A stretch of DNA of 64,000 bases from an uncultured Gemmatimonadales bacterium (lineage in GTDB: Bacteria > Gemmatimonadota > Gemmatimonadetes > Longimicrobiales > RSA9): the NCBI GenBank assembly GCA_963741945.1, contig CAVUKA010000005.1:576001-640000 (forward strand). The letters are read 5' to 3'. The notes under the pieces were generated by a model that had not been told where the DNA came from, did no database searches, and saw nothing but the letters and a program-made list of their open reading frames with translations. Below are positions 1 to 43,586 of this stretch, piece by piece. How positions within the stretch are numbered: position 1 is the stretch's first letter; every line of letters starts with the position of its first letter. The position numbers and the translations under genes were made by a program.

Positions 1-583
1 CGAACAGGAGCGAAGTCCAAAGCAGCCGGCGGCGCGACAGCAGGGCGTGAGGCAGGGCGGCGAGCGCGAGATAGGAGAACAGGTGGGGCCGCGCGATCCA
101 GTGCGACTGGTTCAGCACGACCGCCGCGGCGCCCGTGACCAGCGCCAGCCAGGGGTCGCCGCCATCCCGCCGCACGTATGCAACCACCAGCGCCACGGCC
201 CCGCCGATGAGCAGCGCGGCCAGCGCCACCACGCCGGCGAATCCAGCCGCCGCATGGGCCCCGGCGTATGCCACCTGGCTGAGCCATTCATAGGCGAGGA
301 ACGGCTCTCCGGCCCGGGAGAAGGAGAACGGGTCCGCGAACCTCGGCCCATGCCCGAGGATGTAGCGGCCGATGAGGATGTGCCGGAGGAGGTCGCCGTC
401 ACCATTGACCAGCCGCCCGTGGGCCAGGAATGCCGCTGAAGCCGAGGTCAGGGCGAACGCCATACCTACCACGGATGCCTGCTGGGGCTCACGGGCCGGC
501 ACAGCGGCACCGGCCGGCGGTTGCGAAACGGGTGAAGCCTCCTGGCCCGCCCGGGCGGTTTCCGTCGCGCCGGGGCCGCTCAC
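1..583 (-). CDS. GT-C fold integral membrane glycosyltransferase-like protein (3'-truncated by window edge), paralog of 2164-3687
   Basis: Not in the ORF track. The GTG at 583 overlaps the TGA of the GT2 gene. Manual translation gives LVNGDGDLLRHILIGRYILGHGPRFADPFSFSRAGEPFLAYEWLSQ...HWIARPHLFS, nearly identical to 2164-3687, and is open to the edge. Confidence 0.85.
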   Translation of the reverse strand, partial: MSGPGATETARAGQEASPVSQPPAGAAVPAREPQQASVVGMAFALTSASAAFLAHGRLVNGDGDLLRHILIGRYILGHGPRFADPFSFSRAGEPFLAYEWLSQVAYAGAHAAAGFAGVVALAALLIGGAVALVVAYVRRDGGDPWLALVTGAAAVVLNQSHWIARPHLFSYLALAALPHALLSRRRLLWTSLLF

Positions 584-1404
584 GGCTCCCTTCCCGCCGT
601 CATCGGCTCCGTTCCTTTCGATGCGGGCCGGCCGGTTGGCCCGGCCACCAGGCGGCGCCCGGGCCGCTGCACCCACAGGCGAAGAAGAAAAAGGAAAGCG
701 CGGGCGCCCGCCAGCATGGAGACCTTCGACTCGCCCACGTCGCGCCAGGCGGGAAGCGGCACCTCTACGATCCTGTCGATCCCGCTGTCCCCCCACCCCT
801 CCTGGAGGCGGCGCAGCAGCTCGATGTCGAACGCCCAGCGCGATTTGAACGGCCGCTGGAGTGCGTGCTCCAGGGCCGATGACTTCCGCAGGAGCTTGGC
901 ACCGCACTGTGTGTCGTATACGGGCACGCCGAGCGCCAGCGACGCCAGTGTGCCATAGGCACGCCCGGCCAGGTGGCGCAGGCCGGACCGCTGGATCTCG
1001 CGGCCCAGCATTCGAACGCGCGCGCCCATGACCACGTCCACCCCACGGCGCTCATCCAGGAGTTGATCGAACGCTTCGATCATGTCCAGCGGCGTGGCGA
1101 GATCAGCGTCCCAGTAGCCCACGCGCGACGCGCCCGCGTCGAGCGCCGTCCTGAGGCCGGCCCGAACCGCCTCTGCCTTCCCCACGTTCTGCTCCAGCGC
1201 CAGCACGCGGCAGCCGCCGGCACGGAGGCGCCCGATCCCGACGGCAAGGGCGTCCAGCGACCGGCGCGTGCCATCGGTGCTTCCGTCGTCCACGAAGATG
1301 AACGTGGGCGCGCGGGAGCCAGCGGCCGCCGCCAGGAATGCGGACGCATCCAGGCGAAGCGCCTCGTTGTAGCACGGCACGACCACCCAAGCATCACTCG
1401 CCAT
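580..1404 (-). CDS. GT2 polyprenol-phosphate glycosyltransferase (Dol-P-Glc/Dol-P-Man synthase-like)
   Basis: Motifs VVPCYNEA, FVDDGSTDGT, GKAEAVR, DADLATP (DxD), YDTQCGAK, WAFDIE. Confidence 0.9.
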   Translation of the reverse strand: MASDAWVVVPCYNEALRLDASAFLAAAAGSRAPTFIFVDDGSTDGTRRSLDALAVGIGRLRAGGCRVLALEQNVGKAEAVRAGLRTALDAGASRVGYWDADLATPLDMIEAFDQLLDERRGVDVVMGARVRMLGREIQRSGLRHLAGRAYGTLASLALGVPVYDTQCGAKLLRKSSALEHALQRPFKSRWAFDIELLRRLQEGWGDSGIDRIVEVPLPAWRDVGESKVSMLAGARAFLFLLRLWVQRPGRRLVAGPTGRPASKGTEPMTAGREP

Positions 1405-2167
1405 CGGCCTGGCTCCGCCTCAGAATCGCCAACAGACTCAGCCCATGCCCCGGGAGATCGCGGCGTCCCCGCTTCAGCGCATCCACGAGCCCTGGAACCT
1501 CGCCCGTGAACACCCGTTCCAGGGCGCGGTTCACCGGCGCCCATGGCAGCCCCATATCGCTTCCTTCGCGCCCCGTGCCGCTCCCCCGCCACGCCCCGAG
1601 ACGCCGGACCATCCGCGCCAGCGGGTACAGCCGGCGATTGAATGGCGCCAGCAGGCGGACTTCTGCCGGGACGCCCGACCAGGCGTCCCAGAGCATCTCG
1701 CGGGTGTATCGCCGGTAGTGTCCGTACACCTCGTCGTGGGGGCTCCAGAGCCAGGGCCCGAACGGCACGGTCATCAGCAGGTGCGCCTCCGGGCGCATGC
1801 TGCCGATCAACCGCTCCAGGAAAGCGTGGTCATGCTCGACGTGCTCCAGGACATCGCAGAGGAGGACCAGGTCGGCCCGGCCGATCATTTCCCTGCCGGC
1901 CTCCGGAGCGGCGCCTGTTTCGAAGCTGACGCCCGGATGGGCCCGTCGCGCCAGCTGGATTGCCGTGGGCGAGCTGTCGATCCCGTGGCGGTCGTGCCTC
2001 TCGGGGAACGCACCGATATCCGCGCCCGTGCCGCACCCGACATCCACCACCACACCCCGTTCGGGCAACAGCCGCGTCCCGAGTTCCAGGATGGCCCTGC
2101 GCCGCCCCCGGAACCACCAGTGGCGCGCCTCGAGCGCGTGGTGCGTGCTGAACAGCTGTTCCTTCAT
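1394..2167 (-). CDS. Class I SAM-dependent methyltransferase
   Basis: Real start ATG 2167 (MKEQLF...HWWFRGRR) overlaps the upstream stop; motifs VDVGCGTG, DVLEH, LWSPHDEVYGHYRRY. Confidence 0.88.
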   Translation of the reverse strand: MKEQLFSTHHALEARHWWFRGRRRAILELGTRLLPERGVVVDVGCGTGADIGAFPERHDRHGIDSSPTAIQLARRAHPGVSFETGAAPEAGREMIGRADLVLLCDVLEHVEHDHAFLERLIGSMRPEAHLLMTVPFGPWLWSPHDEVYGHYRRYTREMLWDAWSGVPAEVRLLAPFNRRLYPLARMVRRLGAWRGSGTGREGSDMGLPWAPVNRALERVFTGEVPGLVDALKRGRRDLPGHGLSLLAILRRSQADGE

Positions 2168-3687
2168 CCGCCCTCCCCGTTCTTCGCCAGCAGGACCGCC
2201 ACGCCGTCCTCGTGCACAACGCGCCAGCCGTCGGCCCCGCGGAGCGCCTCCACGATGGGCGTTCCCGGCGGGAAAAGCACGACGGAGATCCGGTTCCGGG
2301 CCAGCAGATTGCGCCAGCCGGGCCGGGCGTCCCTCAGCACGACGTAGTCGCCGATGAGCTCCGGGCCGAAGAAGTCGGCCATGCTGTCCACGAACACGCG
2401 CTGCCCCGGCCACGCGTAGAGGACGTAGCCGCCCCATGTGTACTCGCTGATCAGGCGACCGTCCAGTTGTTGACTCATGGCCACCCGGACCGCCGCCTCG
2501 GGAAACACGTGGGGCGAGAACCGGTCCGGCAGCAGCCCGGGTCCCCCGACCCGGCCCACCACGAGAAGCAGTGCCAGACCGGCCGCGGCCATCGAACCAT
2601 GGCGCGATCCTGGTCGATCCGATCGGGCGAACTCCGCGCGCATCCGGCCCAGCAGCCAGTGCGGGAGCGCCGCCATGGCGGGCGCCAGCGCGCGGGCCGC
2701 GAGGGGGAGCGCGAACAACGGAAGCAGCGTCGTGTACCGGCGTCCCATGAACGATACGGCCACCGCAATGGTGAACGGGAGCACCGCCGGCCACGGCCTG
2801 GCAGGCCGGGCGAGGGCGAGTCCGGCGGCGGCCGTTCCGGCAACAGCAAGGAACACCAGTCCGTTGATAGACAACAGGGGGAGCGGCAGGAACTCCGAGA
2901 CCCCCATGGCCGAGCCGCCTCCGCCGAGCGCAAGCGCGTGGACGTGGAGCGCCGCGCCGAAGGGGTTCAGCAGCGTGGCGGCGGAAGCGACCAGCACGGG
3001 CACGCCCCACCGCACGACGGCGCGCCCGGTCCCATCCCCGGAGCGGACGTCCTCCACGGCCATGCCCGACGACCATGCGCCGAGCATCACCAGTCCATAG
3101 AGAAACCCCGGGTGGAGGTTGGCCCACAGCGCGAACAACACCCCGAGCCACAGCGTCCGACGCGGGGACTCGATTGCGTACAGCAGCGCCGCGAGACCAA
3201 GGAAGCTGAACAGGTGGGGGCGCGCCAGCCAGTGCGGGTACGTCAGCACCACGGCAGCCGTCCCGACCATGAACGCGAGCCACGGGTCCCCCGCAGCCCG
3301 GACCCAGCGCACCACCAGCGCGAAGGATGTGGCCAGGAGCAGCGACGAGAGGACGACCACGCCAGCGAGCCCCAGCCAGCCATGGACGGCCGCAAGCAAC
3401 GCCTGACTCAGCCATTCGTACGCCAGAAACGGGTCTCCCCCTCGCGTGAATGAAAACGGATCCGCGAAGCGCGGCCCGTGCGCCAGGATATACCGGCCGG
3501 TCACGAGGTGACGGGCCAGGTCACCGTCCCCATTCACCAGCATTCCGCCGAAGCCCAGCGGGATCACGAGCGCCCAGAGAGCGAACGTGAGATCGACCAC
3601 CGACGCGCGGCCGCGCTCGCCATGGGCCGCGCCCAGCTCGGCACCGCCACGCGTGGACACGGCGGCCTCCACCGGTCCGTGCATCAC
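2164..3687 (-). CDS. GT-C fold multi-pass membrane glycosyltransferase-like protein
   Basis: Acidic DGD loop after TM1, EWLSQ, RPHLFS, LWANLHPGF, many TM helices, C-terminal periplasmic domain (YTWGGY...VFVDS). Confidence 0.75.
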   Translation of the reverse strand: MMHGPVEAAVSTRGGAELGAAHGERGRASVVDLTFALWALVIPLGFGGMLVNGDGDLARHLVTGRYILAHGPRFADPFSFTRGGDPFLAYEWLSQALLAAVHGWLGLAGVVVLSSLLLATSFALVVRWVRAAGDPWLAFMVGTAAVVLTYPHWLARPHLFSFLGLAALLYAIESPRRTLWLGVLFALWANLHPGFLYGLVMLGAWSSGMAVEDVRSGDGTGRAVVRWGVPVLVASAATLLNPFGAALHVHALALGGGGSAMGVSEFLPLPLLSINGLVFLAVAGTAAAGLALARPARPWPAVLPFTIAVAVSFMGRRYTTLLPLFALPLAARALAPAMAALPHWLLGRMRAEFARSDRPGSRHGSMAAAGLALLLVVGRVGGPGLLPDRFSPHVFPEAAVRVAMSQQLDGRLISEYTWGGYVLYAWPGQRVFVDSMADFFGPELIGDYVVLRDARPGWRNLLARNRISVVLFPPGTPIVEALRGADGWRVVHEDGVAVLLAKNGEGG

Positions 3688-4829
3688 GGTCCTGCAGAGG
3701 CGCTTGCAGTGGCACCGACCGCAGCCTCAGCCGCGGCCGCGCTCCCCCCGCCCGTCGCCCGTCCCTTCTTCCGCCCGACCAGCACGGCCGCGAACACCAG
3801 CCCGATGGCCAGATATCCGTTCCAGCAGAGCGGCGAGAACAGCAGCGACGCCAGCAATACCGCGGTCAGGTGCAGCCGGGTGTCCCACCGCCGCGTGAGC
3901 CACCAGGCGCCGAATGGCGCCGCCACGGAGGCGGCAGTCAACCACACCCTCCACCCCGGCGACAGCGGCCCTGACTCGTAGTGCGAGACGCCCGTCCAGC
4001 GGGCCACCCGCAGCACCAGGAACGATAGCGACCAGTTCGTGGACAGGAACGCGCCCTGGCCGAGCGCCGGCGGGATCGCGGTGAACCACTGCTGCGACAC
4101 GCGGAAAAGCCGCGCCGGACCCAGTGCGGCGACACTCACCAGCACCACGCCCACCGCGGCCCAGACGGCTCCTCGCACCACCCGCCACCGCTCCCGCCAC
4201 ACCGCCGCGATCACCGCCCATACGGCGTACGGTTTCACCGCCGTCGTGAGGACCAGCCCCGCCCCGCGGAACCGCGGATACGCGATGGCCCCGGCGAAGA
4301 ACACCCACAGAAGGGGATCGATGTTGAACAGCAGGAAGAACAGCAGGGCTCCCGGCATCAGCACAACCAGGCCATGCCAAAAGAAGAATCCTCCGACGCT
4401 CCACCGCCCCCGTGCAATCCGCGCCAGGAGCGCCGCGAACGCCCAGAAGGAGAACGCCACCACGAGGAACCACGCTCGCTGGAAGGTGACCAGCTCCGTG
4501 CGGGGCAGCAGTGCCACCACGGACGCCAGGGGAGGCAGGTACGGGCTGTTGTCCATCGGGTATCCGGTCGAGCCGGACCCCCCCATCACATCCGGTCCGA
4601 ACCCCGGCATCCGCCGGTACAGCTCCTCCGCTCCTGCACGTACCCGCTCCGACTGGTACCATACCTGTGGCGAGTCCACATTGTCCGGACCGGGGTGGCG
4701 GATGCTGTCCGCCAGCCACCACGCTTGAAAGGGGATGATCAGGGCGCCGACCAACAGAAAAGGAAGGCGCACATAAAATGAAGGCGTTCTGGACCTGCTT
4801 CCGTTGACGGTGCCTGCACGGATGATCAT
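3684..4829 (-). CDS. GT87/DUF2029-family membrane glycosyltransferase
   Basis: N-terminal loop Asp, PYLPP, VKPY, NWSL, SPLCWNGY patterns; polytopic. Confidence 0.7.
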   Translation of the reverse strand: MIIRAGTVNGSRSRTPSFYVRLPFLLVGALIIPFQAWWLADSIRHPGPDNVDSPQVWYQSERVRAGAEELYRRMPGFGPDVMGGSGSTGYPMDNSPYLPPLASVVALLPRTELVTFQRAWFLVVAFSFWAFAALLARIARGRWSVGGFFFWHGLVVLMPGALLFFLLFNIDPLLWVFFAGAIAYPRFRGAGLVLTTAVKPYAVWAVIAAVWRERWRVVRGAVWAAVGVVLVSVAALGPARLFRVSQQWFTAIPPALGQGAFLSTNWSLSFLVLRVARWTGVSHYESGPLSPGWRVWLTAASVAAPFGAWWLTRRWDTRLHLTAVLLASLLFSPLCWNGYLAIGLVFAAVLVGRKKGRATGGGSAAAAEAAVGATASASAGP

Positions 4830-4835: not shown

Positions 4836-5930
4836 TCAGGAGGTCTTCCGTGGGGCGCCGCTGATCGACCGGGAACGCCAGCCGCCACCAAGGTCAAGTC
4901 GGGGCCGACCCGTACCGGGGATGGCGTCCGGCCGCCCCCACCCGGTTCGCTCCCGCGTAGCTCGGCCGGCAAGTGCCCACCCGAGGAGCCCGACCAGGAT
5001 GCCCGCCAGGGCGTCCGCAGCATAGTGCTCACCAAGAAAGACCACGGCCACGCTCATCAAGGCGACATAGCCCATTCCTAGCCACTTCAGAGAACGGTGC
5101 AGATTGGTCAGGGCAAATGCCGTCACCGTTGCGAGCACGAGGTGGACGGAAGGCATTGCCGCCACGTCATTCGAGGAAGCGCGATAACCTGCCTCCATGA
5201 TCTGGGGCACGCTCGGGTACATGACGTCCCAAAGTATCCGGCGCACGGGCGCTATTGCGCCGGCGTTCGCGGCCATCCACGGCGGCACGGTTGGGAACGC
5301 GGTGTGCCACACCAGGGCGATCCCGAAACCCGACAACAGGGCCAAAACCACGCGGGTCGCCGACCTGTTCAGAGCAAGTGACGCGGCAAGCACAAGAGGG
5401 AAGGCAAAATGAAACGAAAGATACGTGATGCTCATCAGCACGTCCAACAACCTGGCCTGGAAGTGCTCCTGAAGCAGCACCGTCGGGACTGTCCCGAGCC
5501 CCAGCACCCGATCCACGAAGATCGGATACTGCGTGCGCCACGGCGCCACCGCGTCCGCCAGCCCGCGCAGTGAAGCGAAGGCCGCATATCCGAGAGCCCA
5601 CAGCCCGAACAGCTTCACGCGGATCGAACGCGTCCACAGGAGCCATAGGCCCAAGGGGACGAGCAGAATGGCGTTCCCCGGACTCAGCACGAAGAACAGG
5701 GGGCTGATGCCGATGACGAGAAGGACGAAGAGCCCGATGGCGGCCCCGAGCGCGCCGAGGACGCTTCGCAGGGCCGCCAGCAATCCCGCCCCGGTCACAC
5801 TACGCCCGCGGCCACCGGGGACGAATCGGGCGACCACGCTCCCCCGGGAAGGAGGCTCTGAACCGGGCCTTTCAGATCGGTATCGGCCGCCGGCAGCGTT
5901 CTCAAGCGGAGTTGTTGGGTGCAAAGCCAT
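4836..5930 (-). CDS. PAP2-family (Aur1/IPC-synthase-like) membrane phosphatase/phosphotransferase; start uncertain
   Basis: Catalytic motifs PTVPPW, AAMPSVH, GEHYAAD. Confidence 0.8.
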   Translation of the reverse strand: MALHPTTPLENAAGGRYRSERPGSEPPSRGSVVARFVPGGRGRSVTGAGLLAALRSVLGALGAAIGLFVLLVIGISPLFFVLSPGNAILLVPLGLWLLWTRSIRVKLFGLWALGYAAFASLRGLADAVAPWRTQYPIFVDRVLGLGTVPTVLLQEHFQARLLDVLMSITYLSFHFAFPLVLAASLALNRSATRVVLALLSGFGIALVWHTAFPTVPPWMAANAGAIAPVRRILWDVMYPSVPQIMEAGYRASSNDVAAMPSVHLVLATVTAFALTNLHRSLKWLGMGYVALMSVAVVFLGEHYAADALAGILVGLLGWALAGRATRERTGWGRPDAIPGTGRPRLDLGGGWRSRSISGAPRKTS

Positions 5931-6226: not shown

Positions 6227-7822
6227 TCATCTACTCTGTCCTGCGCGTCCTGTTATATCCGGGGGCGGATCTGGCGTACGGACGCGTGTGGCCTGCTGGC
6301 ACAGTTGCCATACGGTTATTTTCGGCTGACGCTGACCTGCGTCCGTAACACGCACCGGTTCATCACACGCTCGCCCGGGCGCTAGAGATCTACGTAGCCA
6401 GAATGACCTCCCGGCACGTTCCGCACAGAAGATGTACTCGGCTTCGAGAGCGCGCTTGAAGCGGTTGGCGAAGTCACGACGCTGCAGCCTCAGCGCCACT
6501 GAGTCGACGATCACGACGAGAGCCGGCCGCCCAGTCTGGAGCCGTGAAACTACTGTATCCTGAACGGACGGCACGGACACAAGCTGCATCACGTACAATT
6601 GCTCGGGGACGGCGGGTGCCCGCTCGGCAACGAAGTAATCCTCGGGTTCAGAGGCGGCGATGTAGATCGACTCGGATGGCAGCGTGAGTTGCTGGATCTT
6701 GCTGGCGACCGTGTCGAGCGCTGCGGCCCTGCCTTCGTGCCACCAGTAGTCCTGCCACTGGCGATCGCCGCGCCACCACTTTGCTTCCAGCGGGAGCAGG
6801 CCGCAGGCGAGCACGACGACAATGGCTACCCCAGGGCGAATGCGCCTGAGATCCGCCAGGGCCATGATGCCGAAGGCGCCCAGGATTGCCAGGGGCGGCA
6901 CGAATGTGATGAAGTAATGAGGGTACCACTTCGAACCAATGAGGCCCCCAGCCAAGGAGGACAGGATCCACAGTGACGCAAACCACCGGATTTCGGCGGA
7001 AGACGTGCGTTCGTCCGCAGGAAGGGTCGCGCGGGGGAGAACGCCGAGAGCCAGCGGAAGCAGTAACGCGGGAGCAGCCCGGAGGGCTCCGTAGATGAAA
7101 CGCCCTATTTGCAGTGTGGGGGGGGCGGTCATGCCCGAGTCGACCAGAAGGCGCTGACTTACCAGCGAGTACCAGTAGCCCTGCCAGTCCGCCGCGGCCC
7201 CCGCGAGCATGGAAAAGGCTGGCCACACAGCAAACGTCCACAAAGAGGTCAGCGCTTCTCGCGCTTCGCGCCGCCTCGCGGCCCATGCGAAGAGGAGGAC
7301 GAACTGGCCGGCCCCCACGGGCTTGATGAATGCCGCCAGGCCTATCCAGAAACCGGCTCGCTTCCACTGGCCGGCCCAGATGGCGGCCGCCGAGAGCACG
7401 AGCGGCAGGTTGACCCATGTTTCGGCGTTCGCCGAGAAGCCTTCCACGCTCGCCGTGGTGGAAAGCACGGCGAACAACGCGGCTGCGAGCCAACCCCCGG
7501 CGCACCCCAGTACCGGCCGGGTGGTCCAACCGAGAAGGACTGATGTGGCCGCTACCCACAGCGCTGCACCCACCCGGAACCCCGTAACGGAATCGCCGAA
7601 CAGGCGCATGGCAGCCGTGAAGAGCCAGAAAATGCCTTGCGGGCGATCGAACGGAAAGGTGGAATAGAGCCCGCCGTGCCGGACGACCAACGCGTAAGCC
7701 GCAGCGTCCGGGGAGGGAGGGGCGTCAAGAAACAACATCCGCAGCGCAACGGCGAGAGCGAACACGCCACCCGCCAACCAGAAGTCCCCGGCGCTCCAAC
7801 GCCGTTCCCGGAGCACCGTCAC
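6227..7822 (-). CDS. ArnT/PMT-like (GT83/GT39) GT-C glycosyltransferase
   Basis: GTG 7822 overlaps the gtrA stop; PDAAAY loop, DRPQG, ANAE, FIKP, YPHYF; polytopic. Confidence 0.75.
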   Translation of the reverse strand: MTVLRERRWSAGDFWLAGGVFALAVALRMLFLDAPPSPDAAAYALVVRHGGLYSTFPFDRPQGIFWLFTAAMRLFGDSVTGFRVGAALWVAATSVLLGWTTRPVLGCAGGWLAAALFAVLSTTASVEGFSANAETWVNLPLVLSAAAIWAGQWKRAGFWIGLAAFIKPVGAGQFVLLFAWAARRREAREALTSLWTFAVWPAFSMLAGAAADWQGYWYSLVSQRLLVDSGMTAPPTLQIGRFIYGALRAAPALLLPLALGVLPRATLPADERTSSAEIRWFASLWILSSLAGGLIGSKWYPHYFITFVPPLAILGAFGIMALADLRRIRPGVAIVVVLACGLLPLEAKWWRGDRQWQDYWWHEGRAAALDTVASKIQQLTLPSESIYIAASEPEDYFVAERAPAVPEQLYVMQLVSVPSVQDTVVSRLQTGRPALVVIVDSVALRLQRRDFANRFKRALEAEYIFCAERAGRSFWLRRSLAPGRACDEPVRVTDAGQRQPKITVWQLCQQATRVRTPDPPPDITGRAGQSR

Positions 7823-8277
7823 CCTTCCCCTGCAACAAGCGGCCGTGCCCACGTGAAGGCGTTGTTAAGAACAAAGTTGAGGACCAGCATGGCTGCGATC
7901 GCAGTGGCATTGGCCAACATCAGCCAACCCATGCCCCACCACGCGGTGAGTGTCGTGACAGTTGCGACAGTTCCGGTGAGCGTGAGCAAGGATATGGACT
8001 GAAACCGAAGGAGCCGCTGAGCCCAGCCGTTCCGGGTAGTGCGCCCTCTGAACGTGAACGTATCGTTGCCGACGAAATTGAACAGGATCGCAGTCTCCGT
8101 GGCGGTGGCGGAACTCAGAATGACCGGCCATCCGACAGCGTGCACGCAGACCCAGAGAACGGCCATGTTGACAGTTGTCCCAGTCCCGCCCACCAGAGCA
8201 TAGCGAACGAAAGTCCGAAGATCCTCAAAGCTGTGAGGGAGCCGGTATTTGGTCGGGGTATTACACGCGACAGTCAT
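7819..8277 (-). CDS. GtrA-family lipid-linked sugar flippase-like protein
   Basis: 152 aa, 4 TM; FVRYALVGGTGT, NFVGNDTFTF, NFVLNNAFTW. Confidence 0.88.
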   Translation of the reverse strand: MTVACNTPTKYRLPHSFEDLRTFVRYALVGGTGTTVNMAVLWVCVHAVGWPVILSSATATETAILFNFVGNDTFTFRGRTTRNGWAQRLLRFQSISLLTLTGTVATVTTLTAWWGMGWLMLANATAIAAMLVLNFVLNNAFTWARPLVAGEG

Positions 8278-9764
8278 GACGCTGGAGCAGCAAGGTCAAC
8301 CGGGTGAATATTCTCCTGTTCGCGCCAGCCATCACAAGCCGGTTCCCCCAGCCGCATCTCCTCGTGGTATTCCATGTCGCTGTTCACTGCCCAAACGTCA
8401 TGGTGCGCGCCGAAGATGTTTTCGACCGCGAGCATGGCCGTGAGCATGGAGTGGTCCTGGTTGTTGTACTTGTGCATCCCGTTTCGGCCGGCCACCTGCA
8501 GGTTCGCTACCTCGTCGAGGAAAGCGCGCACCTCTCCGAGGTGGTGTTGATACGCCCCATCATAGACGGGGTACGCTTTCGTCATACGAACGACGTGCCC
8601 GCGGACGACCGTGGCGTCCCCCGACAGCCCGAGCTGCCGCAGCTCGCGCGTGGCCTGCTCGATCAAAGCGCCGTCATCGCTGCTCCAGAGACCATCGCCC
8701 TCGAAGCAGAAGTACTCCATTCCGAGGCAGGTGCGCCCCGCCTCCGGGACCATGGCGCGGCTCCAGTTGTTGAAGTTCTGGATCCGGCCCACCTGGACAT
8801 CGGGGGAGTGCACGTACACCCAGTTGTCCGGGAACAGCGGCTCGTCATCCAGAATCAGGGCAACCACCAGGAAGTCGCGGTAGCGGAGGCTCCGGCCCGA
8901 CTCCCGCGCGGTCGCCGGCGCGCTGTCGCCGAACGCGCGCACCAGCGCCCGCAATGGCATGGTGGAGATCACGTGGTCCGCCTCGAGCGTGACCCCACCG
9001 TCCGGGCCCTGGGCCTCCACGCCGGTCACGCTCCCGTTCTTGCGCAGGAAACCCACGGCACGGTGACCCATGAGGATCCGCCCGCCGAACTCCTCGACGC
9101 GCGCCGCCGCCTTCTCCCACATCTGGCCGGGCCCGAGGCGCGGGTACTGGAACTCCTCGATCAGGCTCTTGATGTCGTCGGAGCGGCGCTGGATCGGGAG
9201 CGCCCGCAGGATGGCCTTCCCGAGCGACAGGTTCTGGATCCGCTGCGCGGCCCACTCCGCCCGGATCTCCGTGCACGGCATCCCCCAGACCTTCTCGGTG
9301 TACGTCTTGAAGAACGTCCGGTACAGCGCGCGTCCGAAACGGTTCGTCACCCACTGCTGGAAAGTGTCCTCATCCTTTGACGGGAAGAGCCTGGCCCATG
9401 CATAGCTCAGGACCATGCCGGCGGCGCGGAAGAGTCCCAGACCCCGGAGCGCGTTGCCGGCCTTGAGCGGGTAATCGAAGAAGCGGCCCCGATAGTAGAT
9501 TCGCGACAGTCGGGGTACGGAGATCATCTCCTCGCCCAGCCACTCGTGCCAGAGCGCCTGCACTTCCGGGATCTTCGTGAAGAAGCGATGCCCGCCGATG
9601 TCAAAGCGATAGCCGTCGCGCACGACGGTACGCGAGATGCCGCCCACCTGGTCGTCCGCCTCCAGCACCGTCACGGCCACCCCACGCTTCGCCAGCATGT
9701 AGGCGGCCGTGAGTCCGGCGGGGCCGGCGCCGATGATGACGACTTGCTGGCTGCGTGGATCCAT
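8274..9764 (-). CDS. FAD/NAD(P)-dependent oxidoreductase (protoporphyrinogen oxidase/UDP-galactopyranose mutase-like fold)
   Basis: GAGPAGL Rossmann motif, VGGISRT, FDIGGHRFFTK, GRNGMHKYNNQDHSM. Confidence 0.85.
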   Translation of the reverse strand: MDPRSQQVVIIGAGPAGLTAAYMLAKRGVAVTVLEADDQVGGISRTVVRDGYRFDIGGHRFFTKIPEVQALWHEWLGEEMISVPRLSRIYYRGRFFDYPLKAGNALRGLGLFRAAGMVLSYAWARLFPSKDEDTFQQWVTNRFGRALYRTFFKTYTEKVWGMPCTEIRAEWAAQRIQNLSLGKAILRALPIQRRSDDIKSLIEEFQYPRLGPGQMWEKAAARVEEFGGRILMGHRAVGFLRKNGSVTGVEAQGPDGGVTLEADHVISTMPLRALVRAFGDSAPATARESGRSLRYRDFLVVALILDDEPLFPDNWVYVHSPDVQVGRIQNFNNWSRAMVPEAGRTCLGMEYFCFEGDGLWSSDDGALIEQATRELRQLGLSGDATVVRGHVVRMTKAYPVYDGAYQHHLGEVRAFLDEVANLQVAGRNGMHKYNNQDHSMLTAMLAVENIFGAHHDVWAVNSDMEYHEEMRLGEPACDGWREQENIHPVDLAAPAS

Positions 9765-21157: not shown

Positions 21158-21161
<4 letters not shown>

Positions 21162-31462: not shown

Positions 31463-31475
31463 GAGAAGGACCCTC

Positions 31476-32282: not shown

Positions 32283-32334
32283 TCCGTTGCGGACTGGCGG
32301 ATCTTGCATGAACACCAGGGAAAGGGCGCATGAC

Positions 32335-33703: not shown

Positions 33704-33710
33704 GGGAGCC

Positions 33711-34952: not shown

Positions 34953-34961
34953 ACGGCCCAA

Positions 34962-36209
34962 ATGGATGATGCCAAGCTGAAGACCGCCGTCATATCGGGG
35001 AGCCGCGAGTTCCGGGAGACCGTGTCCCGGCTGCTCAAGGAGTTCCCCGAGATGCTGCGCGTGGTGAGCGATTTCCCGGTGCCCGCGGGCGACCTCGACA
35101 GCGAGATGCTCGAGGAGCTGCACCGGGACGATCCGGAGCTCATCATCGCGGATTTCAATGGCGACCCGGTCGCGTCGCTGCGCTACATCCGGCTGCTCTC
35201 GGATGCGCGCCCGTCGCGCCTCTTCCTCGGCGCCGGCCCGGAGCTGCCGCCCAAGCTGCTGATCGAAGCGATGCGCGCGGGCGTCTCCGAGTACCTGCCC
35301 ATGCCGGTGGAGCCGCGGCAGCTGGACGAGGCGCTGCGGCGGGTGGGCCGGAAGCTCGGACGCGGCCCGTCGGCGGGGACGAAGGAGGGCGCCCGCATCG
35401 TGGCGTTCGCGGGCGCCAAGGGCGGAACGGGCGCGACCACGGCAGCGGTGAACGCGGCCGTCCACGCGCACGCGCTGACAGGCCGTCGCACGCTGCTGCT
35501 GGACCTGGACGTGGAGTACGGGAGCGTGGGCGTGATGACCGGCGTCGCCCCGAAGTACAGCATCCGGGACCTCGTTTCCAACCTGCACCGGCTCGATGAG
35601 AGCCTGCTGGAATCGCTCATCACCGAGCACGGCTCGGGGGTGCACGTCCTGCCCGCCCCGGTCCAGTGGGACGAAGCGGAGTCCATCCGGCCCGAAGACG
35701 TGCGCACGGTGCTCCGCCTCATCCGCCACCACTACGACATGGTGGTGGTGGACGTGGCGCGCCCCAGCACCCCCCTCGCCCGGGTCGTGCTCGAGCAGGC
35801 GGACGCCATCTACCTGGTCCTGAACGCGGACCTCCCGTCGCTCCGCCACGCGAAGCGGATCATCGCCCAGCTCCAGACCGGGAACGGCCAGTCCCACGAT
35901 CGCGTGCGCGTCATCCTGAACCGCATCACCGCCGGCGGCGAGGAGGTCACGGCGGCGGACGTCGACAAGACGCTGAACGTCCCCGTCGCCTTCAGGCTGC
36001 GGCAGGACGACGCCGCCGTGCTCCGCTCCGTGAACGTGGGCGAGCCGGCGGTCTCGAACGGCTCGCGGTCGAAGTACTGCCAGGACGTGAAGGAGCTGGG
36101 CCTCGAGATCGCCCGGTCGGTGGACCCGGGCATCGAGGAACAGGGGCGCGGCCTCCTTGGCCGGCTGTCCAGGAAGATCGGTGGCAAACGCAGCGGGAGC
36201 GGCTCATGA
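34962..36209 (+). CDS. cpaE: CpaE/TadZ: receiver-like + MinD/ParA ATPase
   Basis: [37 protein letters not shown]. Confidence 0.9.
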
Positions 36210-37654
36210 GCACGGATGCGGGGGAACAGCAGGTTCGGCAGAAGCGCCCGGACGGAGGCGAGGGCCTCGAGCCGCTGGCGCCGCTCGCGCGGTCGGGCGA
36301 CGCGGGCACGCGGACCATGGAGGACGTGCGCGGGCGGATCCACCGCAAGCTGCTGGAGCGGCTGAACCTGTCCAACCTGGACGGGCTCAGCCGCGAGGAC
36401 GCGGCCGCGTCCATCAAGCCGGAGATCCAGAGCCTCCTGAGCGCCGAGGGCGTGGCGCTGAACCTGGAGGAGCGGGAGAAGCTGACGCAGCAGGTCCTGG
36501 ACGAGATTTTCGGCCTCGGCCCGCTCGAGCCGCTCATGAAGGACCCGGACGTCTCCGACATCCTGGTCAACACGCACGCCCAGGTGGTGGTGGAGAAGTA
36601 CGGCAAGCTGGAGCCCACGAACGTGCGCTTCCGCAACGATGCCCATCTCATGCAGATCATCGACCGCATCGTGTCCGCCGTGGGCCGCCGCATCGACGAT
36701 TCTTCGCCCATGGTGGACGCGCGGCTCCCGGACGGCTCGCGCGTCAACGCCATCATCCCGCCGCTGGCGCTGGACGGGCCGCACCTCTCCATCCGGAAGT
36801 TCAAGCGGGACACGCTTTCCGGTGACGACCTCCTGCGCAGCCGGAGCTTGACCGAGCCGATGCTCGAGCTGCTCCGCGCCGTGATCCAGGCGAGGCTGAA
36901 CGTCCTGATCTCCGGCGGCACGGGCGCGGGCAAGACCACGCTGCTGAACATCCTGACGTCCTACATCCCGGCGAACGAGCGGATCGTGACCATCGAGGAC
37001 TCCGCCGAGCTCCAGCTCCGCCAGCCGCACGTGGTGCGCCTGGAGACGCGGCCGGCGAACCTCGAGGGGCGGGGCGAGGTGGCGCAGCGGATGCTCCTGG
37101 TGAACGCGCTCCGCATGCGCCCCGACCGGATCATCGTGGGCGAAGTCCGAGGCGGTGAAGCGGTGGACATGCTCCAGGCCATGAACACCGGCCACGACGG
37201 CTCCATCACCACGCTGCACGCGAACACGGCCCGGGACGCGCTGAGCCGGCTGGAGACCATGATCTCCATGGCCAACCTGCGGCTGCCGGAAAAGGCCATG
37301 CGGCAGCAGGTGGCCTCGGCCATCAACGTGGTGATCCAGCTCAGCCGCCTCTCCGACGGCTCCCGCAAGGTGACCTCGGTCTCGGAGATCGTCGGCATGG
37401 AAGGCGACGTCATCACCATGCAGGACATCTTCCAGTTCGAGCGTCAGGGGATCAACGAGGAGGGCGACGTGGTGGGTCGCTTTCGCTCCACCGGGATCCG
37501 CCCGCGCTTCTCCGACCGGCTCAAGGCGCACGGCATCAACCTCGGCGAGCTGCTCTTCTCGAACACCGACGGTCCGGCGGCGCAGGAGAGCCTGCGATCG
37601 CTGCGCGCCGAAGCGGCACCGGGGCCCGGCCGCTCGCTCAAGGAGTGGTCATGA
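36206..37654 (+). CDS. cpaF: Tad pilus motor ATPase CpaF/TadA
   Basis: [53 protein letters not shown]. Confidence 0.97.
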
Positions 37655-38628
37655 GTCCCTGGATCCCCACCATCCTCGTCTTCGTGGCGGCGGCGTTCGC
37701 CACCGTGGCGGTGGTCCTCGTCCTGGAGGGCGGGCGGGCGTGGTACCGCCGGCGCGACGTGACGCGGCGGGTGGACGACATGCTGACGGGGCGCGCCGAC
37801 CTGCCCGCGGACGCCACGGGCTCGCTCTTCCGCGAGCGGCGCCCGGAGGCGGGCGGCCTCGAGCTGCTCGTCGCCCGGTTGCCGAAGATCCGGGACGTGC
37901 CGGTGCTCCTCGAGCACGCGCGCAGCACGTGGAGCATGAACACGTTCGTTTTCCTGACCATCGGGCTCGCGGTGGCGTTCGGCCTGGCGGCCATGACCGC
38001 GGGGGCCGGCCCGATCGTGGCCGCGATCCTGGCCCTGGTGGGCGCGTGGCTCCCCTACGCCTGGCTGAAGCTTAAGAAGTCGCGCCACCTGAACCGGTTC
38101 GAGGAAGCGTTCCCGGAAGCCATCGACATGCTCGGGCGCGCCATCCGGGCCGGCCACCCCCTCTCCGCCGGGATCCAGATGGTGGGGCAGGAGATGCCGG
38201 ACCCCGTGGGCGGCGAGTTCCGCACGCTTTCCGAGGAGTCCCGCTTCGGCGTGCCGTTCGCCGAGGCCATGATGGGGATGGTGGACCGCGTGGACCTGGT
38301 GGACGTGCGCATCTTCTCCACCGCCATCCTGGTCCAGCGCGAGGTGGGCGGCAACCTGGCGGAGATCCTGGACAACATCTCGAACATGATCCGCTCGCGC
38401 TTCAAGATCCGGCGCCAGCTGCGCACGTACACGGCGCAGGGCCGGATGAGCGGGATCGTGGTGGGGCTCATGCCCCTCGTGGTGGGCGTCGCCTTCTATT
38501 TCCTGAATCCGGAATACGTCCGGCTCCTGTTCGAGCACCCGATCGGCCGGGTGATGCTGGCGTTCGCCGTGGTCATGCAGATCTTCGGCTACTTCTGGAT
38601 CCGCAAGATCGTCAACATCGAGATCTGA
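37651..38628 (+). CDS. tadB: Tad inner-membrane platform protein TadB
   Basis: [26 protein letters not shown]. Confidence 0.93.
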
Positions 38629-38629
38629 C

Positions 38630-39556
38630 ATGATTTCACTCATTGCGCTCAGCGCGGCCGTGGCCATCGGGCTGGTGGTCTACCTGATCGGACAGCTCAT
38701 CCCGGCTCGCTCCGCGGCCGTCGACCGGCGGGTGACGGAAGTGGCCACGCTGTCGGAGGCCGCCGAGGCGGTCCAGCGCCGCCGCCGCCAGGAGCAGCGT
38801 CAGCAGCTCGAGGACCTGCTCGAGGTGGTGGGGCGGCAGCTCAAGGGCTACACCGCGGAATCGGAAGCGACCCGCGAGCTGCTCACCCACGCGGGCTACC
38901 GCAGCCCGAAGGCCGGGCCGATCTACTGGGGGCTCCGCTTCACGTCCGCGGCCGTCCTCGCCATCGGCGCGAGCGTGGTGCTGCCGATGGTGGGCGCGAA
39001 GGCAGCGATCACGGTCCTGGTGTCCGTGTACGTGGCCGCCATGGGCTTCGTGCTGCCGCTGCTCGTGGTCCGGGCCAGGGCGCGGCGCCGGCAGAAGGAG
39101 ATCGTGCTCGCCCTCCCCGACGCGCTCGACCTGCTGGTGGTGTGCGTGGAAGCGGGGCTCGGGCTGAACCAGGCGTTCGTGCGCGTGGCCGACGAGATCC
39201 ACCCGCTGAGCCAGACCATGGCCGCGGAGCTCCACCTCCTCAACCTGGAGATCCGGGCGGGGAAGCCGCGGGAGGAAGCGCTCAGGAACGTCTACAACCG
39301 GACGGGCGTCGACGACCTCCGCTCCCTCACGCTCATGCTGATCCAGGCGGACCGCTTCGGCACGTCCATCGCCCACGCGCTCCGCGTCCACTCCGAGACG
39401 CTGCGTGACAAGCGGCGGCAGCGGGCGGAGGAGGCCGCGGCCAAGACCGCCATCAAGCTCATCTTCCCGCTCGTGCTCTGCATCTTCCCGGCGATGTTCG
39501 TGGTGCTGGTCGGGCCCGGCCTGATCCAGATCATCGAAACGCTCGGCAGCATGTAG
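38630..39556 (+). CDS. tadC: Tad inner-membrane platform protein TadC
   Basis: LPDALDLLVVCVEAGLGL, QADRFGTSI, AEEAAAK..KLIFPL. Confidence 0.93.
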   Translation: MISLIALSAAVAIGLVVYLIGQLIPARSAAVDRRVTEVATLSEAAEAVQRRRRQEQRQQLEDLLEVVGRQLKGYTAESEATRELLTHAGYRSPKAGPIYWGLRFTSAAVLAIGASVVLPMVGAKAAITVLVSVYVAAMGFVLPLLVVRARARRRQKEIVLALPDALDLLVVCVEAGLGLNQAFVRVADEIHPLSQTMAAELHLLNLEIRAGKPREEALRNVYNRTGVDDLRSLTLMLIQADRFGTSIAHALRVHSETLRDKRRQRAEEAAAKTAIKLIFPLVLCIFPAMFVVLVGPGLIQIIETLGSM

Positions 39557-39574: not shown

Positions 39575-40007
39575 ATGCGAGCGCTGCGCGTGGAGAACCG
39601 GACCAGGGATACCGTGCTCGGCACGCGCATCCGGCTGGCGGACGACCTGTTCGGCCGGCTCCGGGGCTTCCTGCTGCGCCCGGCGCCGGAGCCCGGGGAA
39701 GGGATCCTGCTCAGCCCCTGCCAGGGCGTGCACATGTTCGGCGTGCGCTATCCCCTGGACGTCCTGTTCATCGACGAGAGCGGTCGCATCCTGCGCGTCT
39801 ACGAGGGGCTGCGTCCCTGGCGCTGGACCCCCGTCCACGGCGAGGCGTCGTACGCGCTGGAGCTCCCGCCCGGCACCGTCCGGGAAACGGGTACGCGCAT
39901 CGGGGATGCGCTGACCTGGCTTCCCAACAGTGATGCCAGCGGTCCGCCGCGGGAGCGGCAGTCACCGCGGGAGTCGGGCTCCGGCTCCCGCAGAACCGGA
40001 AAGCGGT

Positions 40008-40021
<14 letters not shown>
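39575..40021 (+). CDS. DUF192 family protein
   Basis: LADDLFGRLRG, VHMFGVRYPLDVLFID, ALELPPG. Confidence 0.85.
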
Positions 40022-41381
<1,360 letters not shown>

Positions 41382-41383
41382 GC

Positions 41384-42031
41384 ATGGCCGAAATGGATCA
41401 GAAGACCGAGCCCATGGAGATGCCGCCCGAGCTGGTCCGGGAGTTCAGGGACCTGGTCTCGGAGCGGGTGCGCGTCGAGACCGCGGCCATCCGGCGGAGG
41501 ATGAAGGTGCTCGGCTGGTTCGCCGTGGTCCTGGCGCTGGTCGCGGCCGCCGGCACCGCCGGCGTCCTCTACTACGCTTTCTACCAGGGGCTCCCGGTCC
41601 TCACGTCTCCCACCGTCCGCACGCGCGAGGTGGTGCTCATGGGGGCGGACGGGAAGGCGCGCGGCTACTGGCGCGTGGACGAGGAGGGCGCGGCCCGCTT
41701 CGCCCTCACGGATCCCCGCGGCGTGGACCGGCTGAAGCTGACCCTGAAGACCAACGGGGAGCAGGGCGTCTCCATGGCCGACTCCACCGGCGCGGCGCGC
41801 GTGGTGCTGGGCTTCCTCGACGACCAGAGCGGCACGCTCGGCTTCGCGGATGGCCGCGGCCAGACCCGGGGCGTCCTGGGCCTCACGCCGGACGGCGAGA
41901 CCTCGCTCCTCTTCGCCGACCAGAACGGCGGCACGCGGGCGGTCCTGGGCGTGCGGGCGGACGGCGAGCCGGAGTTCTGGTGGCCGGCCCTTCAGCAGGG
42001 GCAGACCGACACGGCCGGCGGCAGTCGCTGA
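41384..42031 (+). CDS. Single-pass membrane protein with ~23-aa beta-repeats
   Basis: TM near the N-terminus, then about 5 repeats of D-x2-G-x2-R-x2-LG-x3-DG. Confidence 0.75.
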   Translation: MAEMDQKTEPMEMPPELVREFRDLVSERVRVETAAIRRRMKVLGWFAVVLALVAAAGTAGVLYYAFYQGLPVLTSPTVRTREVVLMGADGKARGYWRVDEEGAARFALTDPRGVDRLKLTLKTNGEQGVSMADSTGAARVVLGFLDDQSGTLGFADGRGQTRGVLGLTPDGETSLLFADQNGGTRAVLGVRADGEPEFWWPALQQGQTDTAGGSR

Positions 42032-42077
42032 CATTCCACGGATCTGACTCCACCACCCATCACACGGATAACGGCGC

Positions 42078-43586
42078 ATGCGGTCAACTGGCGTGGAGGC
42101 ACTGGAATCACGGCTCGGCGGGATCGACCCGAGCGGGGCTTTCCTGGTCGCGGGGCCGGAGGGGGTGGGGAAGAGCGTGCTCGGGCTCCACTTCCTCATC
42201 GCCGGTCTCGAGCAGCAGGAGCACTGCATCCTGGTCACCGCCAGCGACGCGGGCATGGTGGACGGGCGCGGCCTGTACATGGGCTTCAGCCCCGGCTCCA
42301 TCTCCGAGCACCCCTCGCTGCAGGTGGTGGACATCCGTGACGCCATCTCGCGGCTCGGCGTGTGGCGCGAGCGCCACGCACCCGTGGAAGCGCTCAAGCG
42401 GCTGGTCGGCCAGGGGCCGCGCCCCGTCACGCGCATCGTCATCGACGAGCTGCGCCACTTCCTCCAGGACTCGCACACGCCCCAGGCCACGGCACGGGCG
42501 CTCATGAGCTTCCTGGCCGGGTCCGGCGCGTCCGCCTACCTCATCGCCAGCAACGCCGACATGACGGCGCTCCCCGATGACGTGCTCCGCACCATCGAGG
42601 GCGAGGCGGCGGCCGTGCTGGAGATGGAGCCGCTGGGCCGCGGCCGCAAGCGCATCTCGTTCCGGAGCGTGCGGCAGAACAGCTTCTCCACCGAGCCGTT
42701 CCTCTACACGCTGCGCACGGGCGGCGGGATCGCGGAAGACCTGCCCGCGTACGAGCGCGAGGTCCGCACGTCGCTCCGTGGCACCATCGCAATCCTGGAC
42801 GAAGCGGGCGTGCTGCCGGGCGAAGTGGTGCAGGCGCTCTCCACCAGCTTCGAAGTGGAGCTGTACAACGAGCTCCAGGGCTCGCTGGTCAAGCTCCTGG
42901 AAGCCCGCTACGGCGTGCTGGTGCTGGGCGTGGACCCGTACGACCCGGAGCGCGCGTTCAACCTGACCTACACGCTCCGCAAGGCGGGCAACGGCGCGCC
43001 CATCCTCTTCGTGGCACCCAGCCGCGGGCTGCGCAGCATGACCCGCTCGCGCGGGCTCCGCATGGGCGGCGACGATTTCGTCCTCTCCGAGCTCCCGCCC
43101 GCCGAGATCGTGGAGCGGATCCGGATCAGCGCGGCCCGGGGGCACCACCGGCGCAACGGCTCGGTCCGTCCCGACCGGCAGCTGCAGCCGCGGAACGAGG
43201 CCGGCGAGCTGCGCCCGATGAAGGCGCACGAGATGGCGCTGGCCGTGCGCGAGCTCGTCGACGAAGCGCCCACGCCCTTCTTCGCCCTGGCGCTGCTGGA
43301 CACCCGCGAGCTGCTCAGCCCCACCGAGCTGTGGGAGTCGCTGCGTCGCCAGGCCCGGCTCAACGACGGGGACCTGGTCTCCATCCTCCCCGACGGCCGC
43401 GTGGCGCTGCTCATCAACCAGGTCGACCAGCACCTGGCGAACCGCGTCCTCACGCGCATCCAGCGCTCGCACCCGGCGCTTCAGAACATCCTCGAAACCA
43501 GGGTCCTCACCAGCCCGCTGGAGGAGTCCGAGATCGAGCGCTGGGCCACGCAGATCGGGCTGAAGAAGCTGGAAGCCGGAGGCTGA
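42078..43586 (+). CDS. KaiC/RAD55-like ATPase + pseudo-receiver + degenerate GGDEF-like domain (paralog 2)
   Basis: STGVEAL, GPEGVGKS, RIVIDE; YGVLVLGVDPY, GNGAPILF, GGDDF; RLNDGDLVSILPDGRVALLI. Confidence 0.8.
   Translation: MRSTGVEALESRLGGIDPSGAFLVAGPEGVGKSVLGLHFLIAGLEQQEHCILVTASDAGMVDGRGLYMGFSPGSISEHPSLQVVDIRDAISRLGVWRERHAPVEALKRLVGQGPRPVTRIVIDELRHFLQDSHTPQATARALMSFLAGSGASAYLIASNADMTALPDDVLRTIEGEAAAVLEMEPLGRGRKRISFRSVRQNSFSTEPFLYTLRTGGGIAEDLPAYEREVRTSLRGTIAILDEAGVLPGEVVQALSTSFEVELYNELQGSLVKLLEARYGVLVLGVDPYDPERAFNLTYTLRKAGNGAPILFVAPSRGLRSMTRSRGLRMGGDDFVLSELPPAEIVERIRISAARGHHRRNGSVRPDRQLQPRNEAGELRPMKAHEMALAVRELVDEAPTPFFALALLDTRELLSPTELWESLRRQARLNDGDLVSILPDGRVALLINQVDQHLANRVLTRIQRSHPALQNILETRVLTSPLEESEIERWATQIGLKKLEAGG

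Follow-up and report, generated by a model that had tools for sequence, protein, structure and literature searches.

We analyzed a 64,000-nucleotide stretch of the genome of an uncultured Gemmatimonadales bacterium (GCA_963741945.1, contig CAVUKA010000005.1, positions 576,001 to 640,000; the window hereafter), which carries a full tad operon for Flp pili among many genes for predicted membrane glycosyltransferases of the GT-C type. The synteny supports an evolutionary link between one of these GT-C families, family A (genes A1 and A2), and Tad pili in this phylum. With a probability of roughly 0.55, we read family A as an STT3-like family that glycosylates a Tad component and lies within a lineage-specific pile-up of surface-glycan genes. 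In our judgment the pairing of family A with Tad is the conserved and new element of the region, and the remainder is lineage-specific or general.

To place the window genes in the phylum we searched 300 other genomes with five proteins, using a cut-off of E <1e-100 for CpaF orthologs and E <=1e-15 for family A. Family A turned up in 37 genomes, and 59 have a CpaF ortholog (a count that includes the unpublished genome G157; G and L numbers are our handles for genomes and loci). CpaF is present in 32 of the 37 genomes with A, and A in 5 of the 241 genomes without CpaF. Of the 25 genomes in which linkage is decidable, 24 have A on the contig of cpaF at a distance of 3.8 to 15 kb; the exception is G259, in which 1.46 Mb lie between them, and seven genomes have A and cpaF on separate contigs. 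The linked genomes span four taxonomic families. Among the searched GT-C families (A, B, and C), A alone tracks Tad. A sequence-only reading of this DNA had proposed that the GT-C genes are linked to Tad and suggested a synteny search; that search upholds the link for A and not for B or C, each of which occurs in 1/300 genomes.

The position of A relative to the pilin gene is variable but close. It is divergent from flp and directly upstream of it in seven genomes (G125, G165, G198, G191, G031, G145, and G270). In G180 it is the penultimate gene of the tad operon and is followed by a homolog of the family-2 glycosyltransferase (GT2) that we call GT2a; in G280 it lies upstream on the same strand, and in G179, G114, and G084 it is 13-15 kb off. 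A GT2 or a methyltransferase gene adjoins A in G180, G165, G031, G145, G086, G114, and L065 (a GT2a homolog in G180 and L065), and methyltransferase homologs adjoin an A- or C-family gene in G165, G031, G086, G114, L065, and L011.

A1 is about 500 residues long and has no Pfam match at E <=5 and no NCBIfam match at E <=0.1. Its 245 homologs all lack names, and those with a named source come from Gemmatimonadota. An AlphaFold model of A1, made from a 41-sequence alignment, has a predicted local distance difference test score (pLDDT) of 90.9 and a predicted template-modeling score (pTM) of 0.90. The top match of this model (Foldseek and VIA-align) is to the STT3 subunits of eukaryotic oligosaccharyltransferases (Z 17.6, 429 residues aligned, root-mean-square deviation (rmsd) 4.2), followed by DPY19 (Z 16.2), AglB (15.6), PMT (14.9, membrane part only), PglB (14.7), ArnT (13.9), and then arabinosyltransferases. 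The C-terminal soluble domain (residues 390-503) matches the globular domain of a short AglB (AglB-S2, 3vu0) with Z 7.9 and rmsd 2.9 over 108 aligned residues. The A1 model therefore combines an STT3-type membrane core with a C-terminal globular domain.

STT3 enzymes carry an acidic D-x-D motif in the first external loop, a Glu in external loop 5 (TIXE/SVSE), and a C-terminal WWDYG motif. In family A, residues D54-G-D56, E91, R156, H158, E265, R317, and W418-G-G are invariant among 41 sequences of 35-66% identity. D54-G-D56 is just past the first transmembrane (TM) segment, E265 is in a 'VSE/TxE' context, and W418-G419-G420 is followed by Tyr or Phe; the D-x-D and the Glu were matched to the STT3 motifs by order along the chain, not by residue-level superposition. 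Because STT3 ranks first structurally and the motif residues are invariant, A appears to be a compact STT3-like enzyme. It resembles STT3, AglB, and PglB in overall fold (membrane part plus C-terminal globular domain, Z 17.6 to 14.6), in the invariant D-x-D after TM1, and in the invariant Glu. It differs from them in its length (about 500 residues versus 650-870), in its identity of 8-12%, and in having no match to PF02516. One homolog, in G125 (L100 9990-12620, minus strand), is an 877-residue open reading frame (ORF) whose C-terminus is extended by about 400 residues relative to A1.

From this context we infer the enzyme activity, the donor, and the acceptor. The Tad-tied module is small and comprises family A (A1 and A2), a GT2, and a methyltransferase. 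The GT2 most likely makes a polyprenyl-phosphate sugar. In the periplasm, A would take a sugar from a lipid carrier and attach it to an exposed Tad component, with the Flp pilin as the most likely acceptor. The genes for GT87, the PMT_2-like protein, GtrA, PAP2, and the FAD enzyme, like the B and C pairs, are rare or general glycan genes and may serve the same or other envelope acceptors. Ser, Thr, Asn, and Pro are abundant in the Flp tails of A-linked and related genomes. Leu/Met-Asn occurs within the last 18 Flp residues in 11/14 A-linked loci versus 1/8 others (window 30315-30365), a motif that was chosen post hoc and an enrichment that relatedness among the genomes may explain.

Flp glycosylation has been described before. 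Flp1 of A. actinomycetemcomitans is reported to be glycosylated, with a mass of 6.2-6.5 rather than 5.1 kDa (PMC6182317), and RcpC is said to have been implicated in Flp glycosylation (PMC12307814). The passages on Flp glycosylation that our literature search returned name no transferase, and it returned no paper tying a GT-C enzyme to a tad locus. By analogy, the nearest precedent for a pilin-adjacent membrane glycosyltransferase appears to be TfpW of P. aeruginosa group IV strains, a membrane D-arabinofuranosyl transferase. Its gene is described as adjoining that of the type IV pilin, which TfpW modifies in the periplasm with a polyprenyl-linked donor (bioRxiv 10.1101/2020.04.19.049825). Family A likewise adjoins a pilin gene (flp) in many relatives. 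Unlike A, TfpW serves type IVa pili and not Tad/Flp, and the best structural matches of A are STT3, AglB, and PglB, not arabinosyltransferases; the two are likened by description.

Several observations weigh against a role of A in Tad glycosylation or against its STT3 likeness. Judged by sequence, A falls outside the STT3 family, as neither of the hidden Markov models (PF02516 or TIGR04154) matches it and WWDYG is not present, being replaced by W-G-G-Y with no Asp. Canonical N-x-S/T sequons occur in the Flp of only 5/14 A-linked loci, and the published text on the Caulobacter Tad pilus reports no glycan density (PMC10710030). A is absent at E <=1e-15 from 27 of the 59 Tad-bearing genomes and so is not needed for Tad. 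In the window itself, A1 lies 26 kb from flp on the opposite strand, farther than in most relatives. The sampled genomes are mutually related, so that the counts overstate independence. The 20 tad loci that we fetched, of which 13 have an A homolog within 20 kb (11 if E <=1e-15 is also required), were picked as closest relatives and for long contigs and are not a random draw.

Another reading, which we consider unlikely, places A in an adhesion island. A and the other GT-Cs would then modify non-pilus acceptors, such as envelope proteins outside the pilus, lipopolysaccharide or lipid A, or a glycan of the exopolysaccharide or adhesin kind, and would be near tad by co-regulation or co-inheritance. 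The neighborhood does contain an exopolysaccharide synthase locus and further GT-C, PAP2, and ABC-2 genes, and homologs of the ABC-2, FAD-oxidoreductase, PAP2, and GT2 genes recur near tad in other taxonomic families. ArnT, AftA, AftD, and Emb proteins, which have lipid or glycan acceptors, also match A (Z 9.6-13.9), and there are the five genomes that carry A without a CpaF ortholog. However, A has stayed within 15 kb of cpaF in all but one decidable genome despite rearrangements and is often the gene nearest flp, and its best matches over both the membrane part and the soluble domain (STT3, DPY19, AglB, and PglB) modify proteins.

A narrower form of the glycosylation reading seems quite doubtful to us. 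In it, A would be a miniaturised STT3-type oligosaccharyltransferase for Tad pilins that acts on a conserved Asn or a nearby Ser/Thr in the C-terminal 'L-N-x-A-P'-like tail of Flp, and the BcsE-like ATPases described below would couple a nucleotide signal to the pilus and exopolysaccharide machines. A non-canonical acceptor site would fit the W-G-G-Y that replaces WWDYG. Tad systems are thought to derive from archaeal pili, and if this form is true it would be a bacterial counterpart of archaeal AglB-dependent pilin glycosylation.

The sequence-only reading had gone further and assigned all eight GT-Cs, both GT2s, and GtrA to one pathway dedicated to Tad, in which pilins would be glycosylated stepwise in a sequential order while the BcsE-like ATPases tune Tad assembly. 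This proposal is improbable on our evidence. It has in its favor that the genes from 18046 to 29919 are translationally coupled and run towards flp, that in L089 a kinase, an activator, GT2b, and a C homolog are divergent from flp, that the B homolog of G239 and cpaF are 10.7 kb apart, and that the tad operon of G179 is followed by a BcsE-like gene. Against it, families B and C are rare in the phylum, no tad gene lies within 20 kb of the C homolog in G259, and C with GT2b is general, with 78/80 C-family loci lacking a tad gene. The BcsE-like family occurs without CpaF in 4/8 genomes and in two of these heads an operon for a TPR protein and a GT2 synthase, and B2 and C2 have frame breaks in this assembly. 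Very improbable, finally, is that A has no catalytic role and serves the Tad machine as a membrane component, its GT-C fold co-opted as a scaffold: A matches no glycosyltransferase model and in G180 sits inside the tad operon tail, but D54, D56, E265, R317, and H158 are invariant in the 41 sequences at positions that GT-C enzymes use, and a GT2 and a methyltransferase repeatedly accompany A.

Family A as a glycosyltransferase of a Tad component is thus a testable candidate, with no database model and kept next to flp through several rearrangements. If the reading is true, A adds a bacterial branch to the protein-modifying GT-C enzymes, and an enzyme of about 500 residues would suit structural work on acceptor choice. 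Most of the dense gene content of the window has accrued in this lineage and does not represent one conserved system.

Pfam, TM segment predictions, and paralog alignments bear out the gene content that had been proposed from the sequence (a full tad operon, eight GT-Cs, two GT2s, GtrA, a two-component sigma54 activator, and two KaiC-REC-GGDEF proteins). All eight GT-C candidates are genuine ORFs with 5-10 predicted TM segments each, and they do form three paralog pairs (A, B, and C) and two singles, with the correction that B2 and C2 are frame-broken and that A2 runs past the left window end. A2 is 59.5% identical to A1 over the 163 residues within the window, and the full gene is 54% identical to A1 over residues 22-504. 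B1 and B2 are 46% and 38% identical over two pieces, and C1 and C2 52% identical over 582 residues. With a single placeholder at the break, B2 is 661 residues long and 42% identical to B1 residues 20-585, and C2 is 710 residues long and 52% identical to C1 residues 34-674. The break regions in this assembly are window 23600-23650 (B2) and 29630-29660 (C2). In the public metagenome run X1, a 151-nucleotide contig of depth 3 includes one additional base after position 23622, which means that B2 also occurs unbroken in nature; the one public DNA run with 18% of the sampled words leaves the C2 break uncovered, and no RNA run is listed among the public runs that match the window sequence. We also considered A, B, and C as one sequence family and rejected this: when A was compared profile to profile with C and with B1, the probabilities were <1%, so that by sequence the three make separate families.

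Family B shows a weak, distant similarity to STT3 that stays under the model cut-offs. B1 matches TIGR04154 (archaeo_STT3) at E 8.6e-8 with 31 bits versus a cut-off of 450, and the N-terminal part of B2 matches PF02516 with 23.7 bits versus 24.5. The one other genome with B is G239, where it is beside an activator and a kinase.

C1 has no Pfam match of its own, but 4/18 detectable homologs carry PF10131, and the ESM Atlas places it with PF10131/YfhO clusters (0.99), families that we take to belong to the GT-C clan. C1 alone retrieved no relative; an alignment query gave 80 C-family loci (L010-L089) from all species representatives, mostly from Acidimicrobiia. A GT2b homolog is present in 71/80 and adjoins C in 69/80, usually downstream. 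Tad genes are near C in only 2/80 loci, both from Gemmatimonadota: in L089, flp-tad is divergent from a kinase-activator-GT2b-C series, and in L065, C, a methyltransferase, A, GT2a, and TadG are together. C plus GT2b is a general, self-contained two-gene module. Sigma54 activators appeared to be near C in 51/80 loci by tblastn, but 47 of these match the REC domain only, and in 47 C-family loci a response-regulator gene is 4-6 kb away.

Three-component glycosylation of the CsbB/GtcA/YfhO type is a known system, and its three kinds of protein (GT2, GtrA, and GT-C) are all encoded in the window. GT2b and C are adjacent, as are GT2a and A, and GtrA is beside the PMT_2-like gene without an adjoining GT2. 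The matches of GT2a and GT2b to lipid-sugar synthases are far under cut-offs; those of GT2a are weak NCBIfam matches to PpgS and dolichyl-P-hexose transferase. The conserved pairing of GT2b with a YfhO-like C and the presence of GtrA resemble the known system, whereas the GtrA of the window is 17 kb from GT2b and C and most homologous pairs are in Acidimicrobiia.

The window encodes two KaiC-REC-GGDEF-like ATPases that are 35% identical over their full length. A profile of their family finds KaiC (E 2e-43) and receiver-domain (E 2e-14) structures in the PDB. We found 272 relatives at E <=1e-30 among 1.84 billion representatives, with many full-length forms (about 500 residues) among the best 150 of the 272. 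The Pfam matches of 54 full-length members are KaiC in 52, Response_reg in 11, GGDEF_2 in 7, GGDEF in 2 (GGDEF or GGDEF_2 in 9/54), and CBP_BcsE in 2. The model of copy 2 (pLDDT 90.7) has E. coli BcsE chains at Foldseek ranks 1-5 (9fp0_E, E 2.4e-16), ahead of KaiC, with alignments of about 525-535 columns over the whole length. With these top five hits and the same domain layout, the label BcsE-like that had been given to the proteins is right. CBP_BcsE (PF10995) matches neither window protein, and its best match among the two family members that have one is E 3.9e-5. Identity with the archaeal ATPase ArlH, the analogy that had been drawn earlier, fails as family membership (22 and 16.4 bits versus a cut-off of 215).

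BcsE is described as having a RecA-like N-terminal domain with a degenerate Walker A motif, a degenerate REC domain, and a degenerate GGDEF domain, the last of which binds c-di-GMP via R415TGD and also binds BcsQ (PMC7439463). The window proteins share this layout of RecA/KaiC-like, degenerate REC, and degenerate GGDEF domains, and homologs in G266 and G049 head a polysaccharide-synthase operon. They differ in that Walker A is intact (G-x-x-G-x-G-K-S/T is invariant in the family) rather than degenerate as in BcsE (PMC7439463). At the I-site region, R427 and G431 are nearly invariant and D432 is invariant, with the spacing R-x3-G-D versus R-x-G-D in BcsE; an RxxD I-site was rejected, as the family does not conserve an Arg at the third position ahead of D432. 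They differ also in that no BcsF, BcsR, BcsQ, or cellulose synthase is seen here and that the gene follows a tad operon. The intact ATPase suggests the state of BcsE before its N-terminal degeneration, and BcsE-type regulators are not confined to cellulose systems.

The BcsE-like pair are probably nucleotide-sensing regulators of surface-polymer machines; here they are placed beside tad and about 18 kb from the exopolysaccharide synthase locus. As Tad regulators in particular, the role that had been proposed for them, they find little support in the phylum: the family is in 8/300 other genomes and beside tad in one of the eight (G179, after the tad operon), which counts against this part of the reading. 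In G266 and G049 the gene is first in an operon, followed by genes for a TPR protein and a PgaC/BcsA-type GT2 synthase (and a deacetylase in G049), and the four genomes without a CpaF ortholog are G266, G078, G188, and G049. Beyond G179, G266, and G049, four genomes with the family have nothing telling near the gene. A predicted complex of TadZ with the REC-GGDEF-like part of copy 2 scored 0.00, in a run without controls. Regulation of Tad by these proteins is possible for this lineage and is not the rule of the family.

Sigma54 control of Tad had also been proposed from the sequence. We searched the region upstream of the first flp for the consensus TGGCAC-N5-TTGCW, with random 300-nucleotide windows of the same DNA as background. 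A match with <=2 mismatches is upstream of flp in 11/22 loci versus 4.2% of random windows, and one with <=1 mismatch in 5/22 loci versus 0.36%. G221 has a perfect match (TGGCACGTGGATTGCA) and G239 one with a single mismatch (TGGCATATCGCTTGCA). A full-length sigma54 activator is encoded near tad in G180, G239, and L089. With these promoter matches and activators, sigma54 control of flp is likely in the phylum. In this window it is unproven: the best match upstream of flp has 3 mismatches, a level that 32% of random windows reach, and no GG/GC core. A perfect TGGCAC lies 168 nucleotides before the window flp, without a proper -12 box. Over the whole window there are 14 matches with <=2 mismatches versus about 20 expected, and the gaps upstream of flp and of the kinase gene contain none. 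About 125 nucleotides upstream of 16146, the likely start of BcsE-like gene 1, there is a sigma54-type -24/-12 element (GGGCACATCGATTGCC, 16008-16023) with 2 mismatches.

PilS-PilR-sigma54 controls type IVa pilin genes, and the kinase and sigma54 activator of the window probably act on flp like PilS and PilR. The genome contains rpoN, and the window encodes the enhancer-binding protein. In both systems, genes for a sensor kinase and a sigma54 activator lie ahead of a pilin gene; the differences are that the pilin is Flp, that the promoter match in the window is at background, and that five glycosyltransferase genes lie between the activator and flp.

Genes in the window, which is about 70% G+C, were called from third-position G+C plus Pfam and are listed in the table. 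Every expected Tad/Flp component is in one operon (Pfam, E about 1e-8 or better), including CpaF/TadA (T2SSE, E 3.5e-65) and a TadZ-like ParA/MinD ATPase (E 2.3e-10), and the tad gene order is kept in related loci. The flp gene is the sole Flp_Fap match, and cpaF the sole CpaF ortholog, in the 4.09-Mb genome.

Table. Features of the window (positions count from its first nucleotide).
Feature	Position	Strand	Evidence or remark
A2, N-terminal part of second A-family GT-C	2..490	-	full gene G000:C5:575042-576496, extends beyond left window end
GT2a, GT2 of polyprenyl-phosphate-sugar synthase type	580..1404	-	Glycos_transf_2 E 4.1e-15
Class I S-adenosylmethionine (SAM) methyltransferase	1394..2167	-	Methyltransf_23 E 2.5e-13
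A1, unnamed STT3-like GT-C family	2164..3687	-	AlphaFold (AF2) model, structural matches, synteny
GT87-family GT-C	3684..4829	-	Pfam GT87 E 3.3e-7, 30.8 bits versus cut-off 25
PAP2_3 membrane phosphatase/transferase	4836..5927	-	Pfam E 3e-23
Probable GT-C, PMT_2/GT87-like	6227..7852	-	PMT_2 E 0.0011, GT87 E 0.0017, 6 TM segments
GtrA-family small membrane protein	7819..8277	-	Pfam E 1e-23
FAD-dependent oxidoreductase, PRK07208 type	8274..9764	-	NF005548 E 1.6e-211
ABC-2 transporter pair, ATPase and permease	12161..14435	+	Pfam
BcsE-like ATPase 1 (KaiC with intact Walker A, REC-like, GGDEF-like)	16146..17642	+	ORF opens at 15999
HAMP-HisKA-HATPase sensor kinase	18046..19782	+	Pfam
REC-AAA+ sigma54 activator with HTH_8	19779..21161	+	Sigma54_activat E 3.5e-66
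B1, distant STT3-like GT-C	21155..22954	+	TIGR04154 E 8.6e-8, 9 TM segments
B2, B1 paralog, one -1 frame break near 23622	22951..24935	+	paralog alignment
GT2b, polyprenyl-phosphate-sugar-synthase-type GT2, family C partner	24896..25669	+	Pfam E 3.9e-20; ArnC, AglJ-type matches
C1, PTPS_related/YfhO-like GT-C	25672..27852	+	homologs with PF10131, ESM Atlas
C2, C1 paralog, one -1 frame break near 29645	27788..29919	+	paralog alignment
flp pilin gene	30177..30368	+	Pfam Flp1_like E 1.4e-8
tadV (A24 peptidase), tadE, cpaB/rcpC, secretin, tadG, tadZ, cpaF/tadA, tadB, tadC	30393..39556	+	Pfam
DUF192 protein, AAA+ ATPase (ORF from 39930), one-TM protein	39575..42031	+	Pfam; tad operon tail in phylum
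BcsE-like ATPase 2	42078..43586	+	AF2 pLDDT 90.7; Foldseek

The genes from A2 through the FAD oxidoreductase form a minus-strand block (1-9764); the PMT_2-like protein encoded in it (6227-7852) is under the Pfam cut-off (PMT_2, 19.6 versus 26.1 bits). After 9764 the plus strand encodes two family-less membrane proteins, the ABC-2 pair, an M50 protease, and a KaiC-domain protein. The series from 18046 to 29919 is as tightly packed as had been claimed, with overlaps of 4, 7, 4, and 40 nucleotides and one 2-nucleotide gap, and 257 nucleotides then separate the end of C2 from flp. The earlier boundaries of the island (1 to 43586) hold on the right, where housekeeping genes follow, and not on the left, where the cluster continues with a GT87 paralog and the exopolysaccharide synthase locus. 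There, L009 (G000:C5:556001-576000) encodes at 10590-19998 a HEAT-repeat protein, a PgaC/BcsA-type GT2 synthase, a TPR protein, a family-less 863-residue protein, the further GT87 paralog, and the remainder of A2.

A short G+C-rich hairpin with a 4-6 bp stem and a 3-5 nucleotide loop (for example GGCC-N4-GGCC) is present in flp leaders of the window (30140-30176) and of L091, L095, L097, L099, L100, L102, L107, L110, L115, and L116, and the stem letters vary by genome. By eye, it ends 0-3 nucleotides 5' of the flp GGAGG ribosome-binding site in 11/14 leaders. RNAalifold gave no consensus structure on a MAFFT alignment of the 14 flp leaders, and Rfam gave only a sub-threshold sucA match on the opposite strand (19.4 bits versus 40).

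Downstream of tadC, the 20 related tad loci encode the DUF192 protein in 14, the AAA+ ATPase (about 430-480 residues) in 13, and the one-TM protein in 9; this tail is absent from six loci of taxonomic family f5. In 6/20 loci, ABC-2 homologs again lie downstream of the tad operon, no more than about 10 kb away (L118-L129, L106). Both ABC-2 genes are near tad in G040, G271, G257, G136, and G191, and the permease alone in G114. Also near tad are the FAD oxidoreductase in G136 and G257, PAP2 in G136, and GT2b-like genes in G040, G114, and G136.

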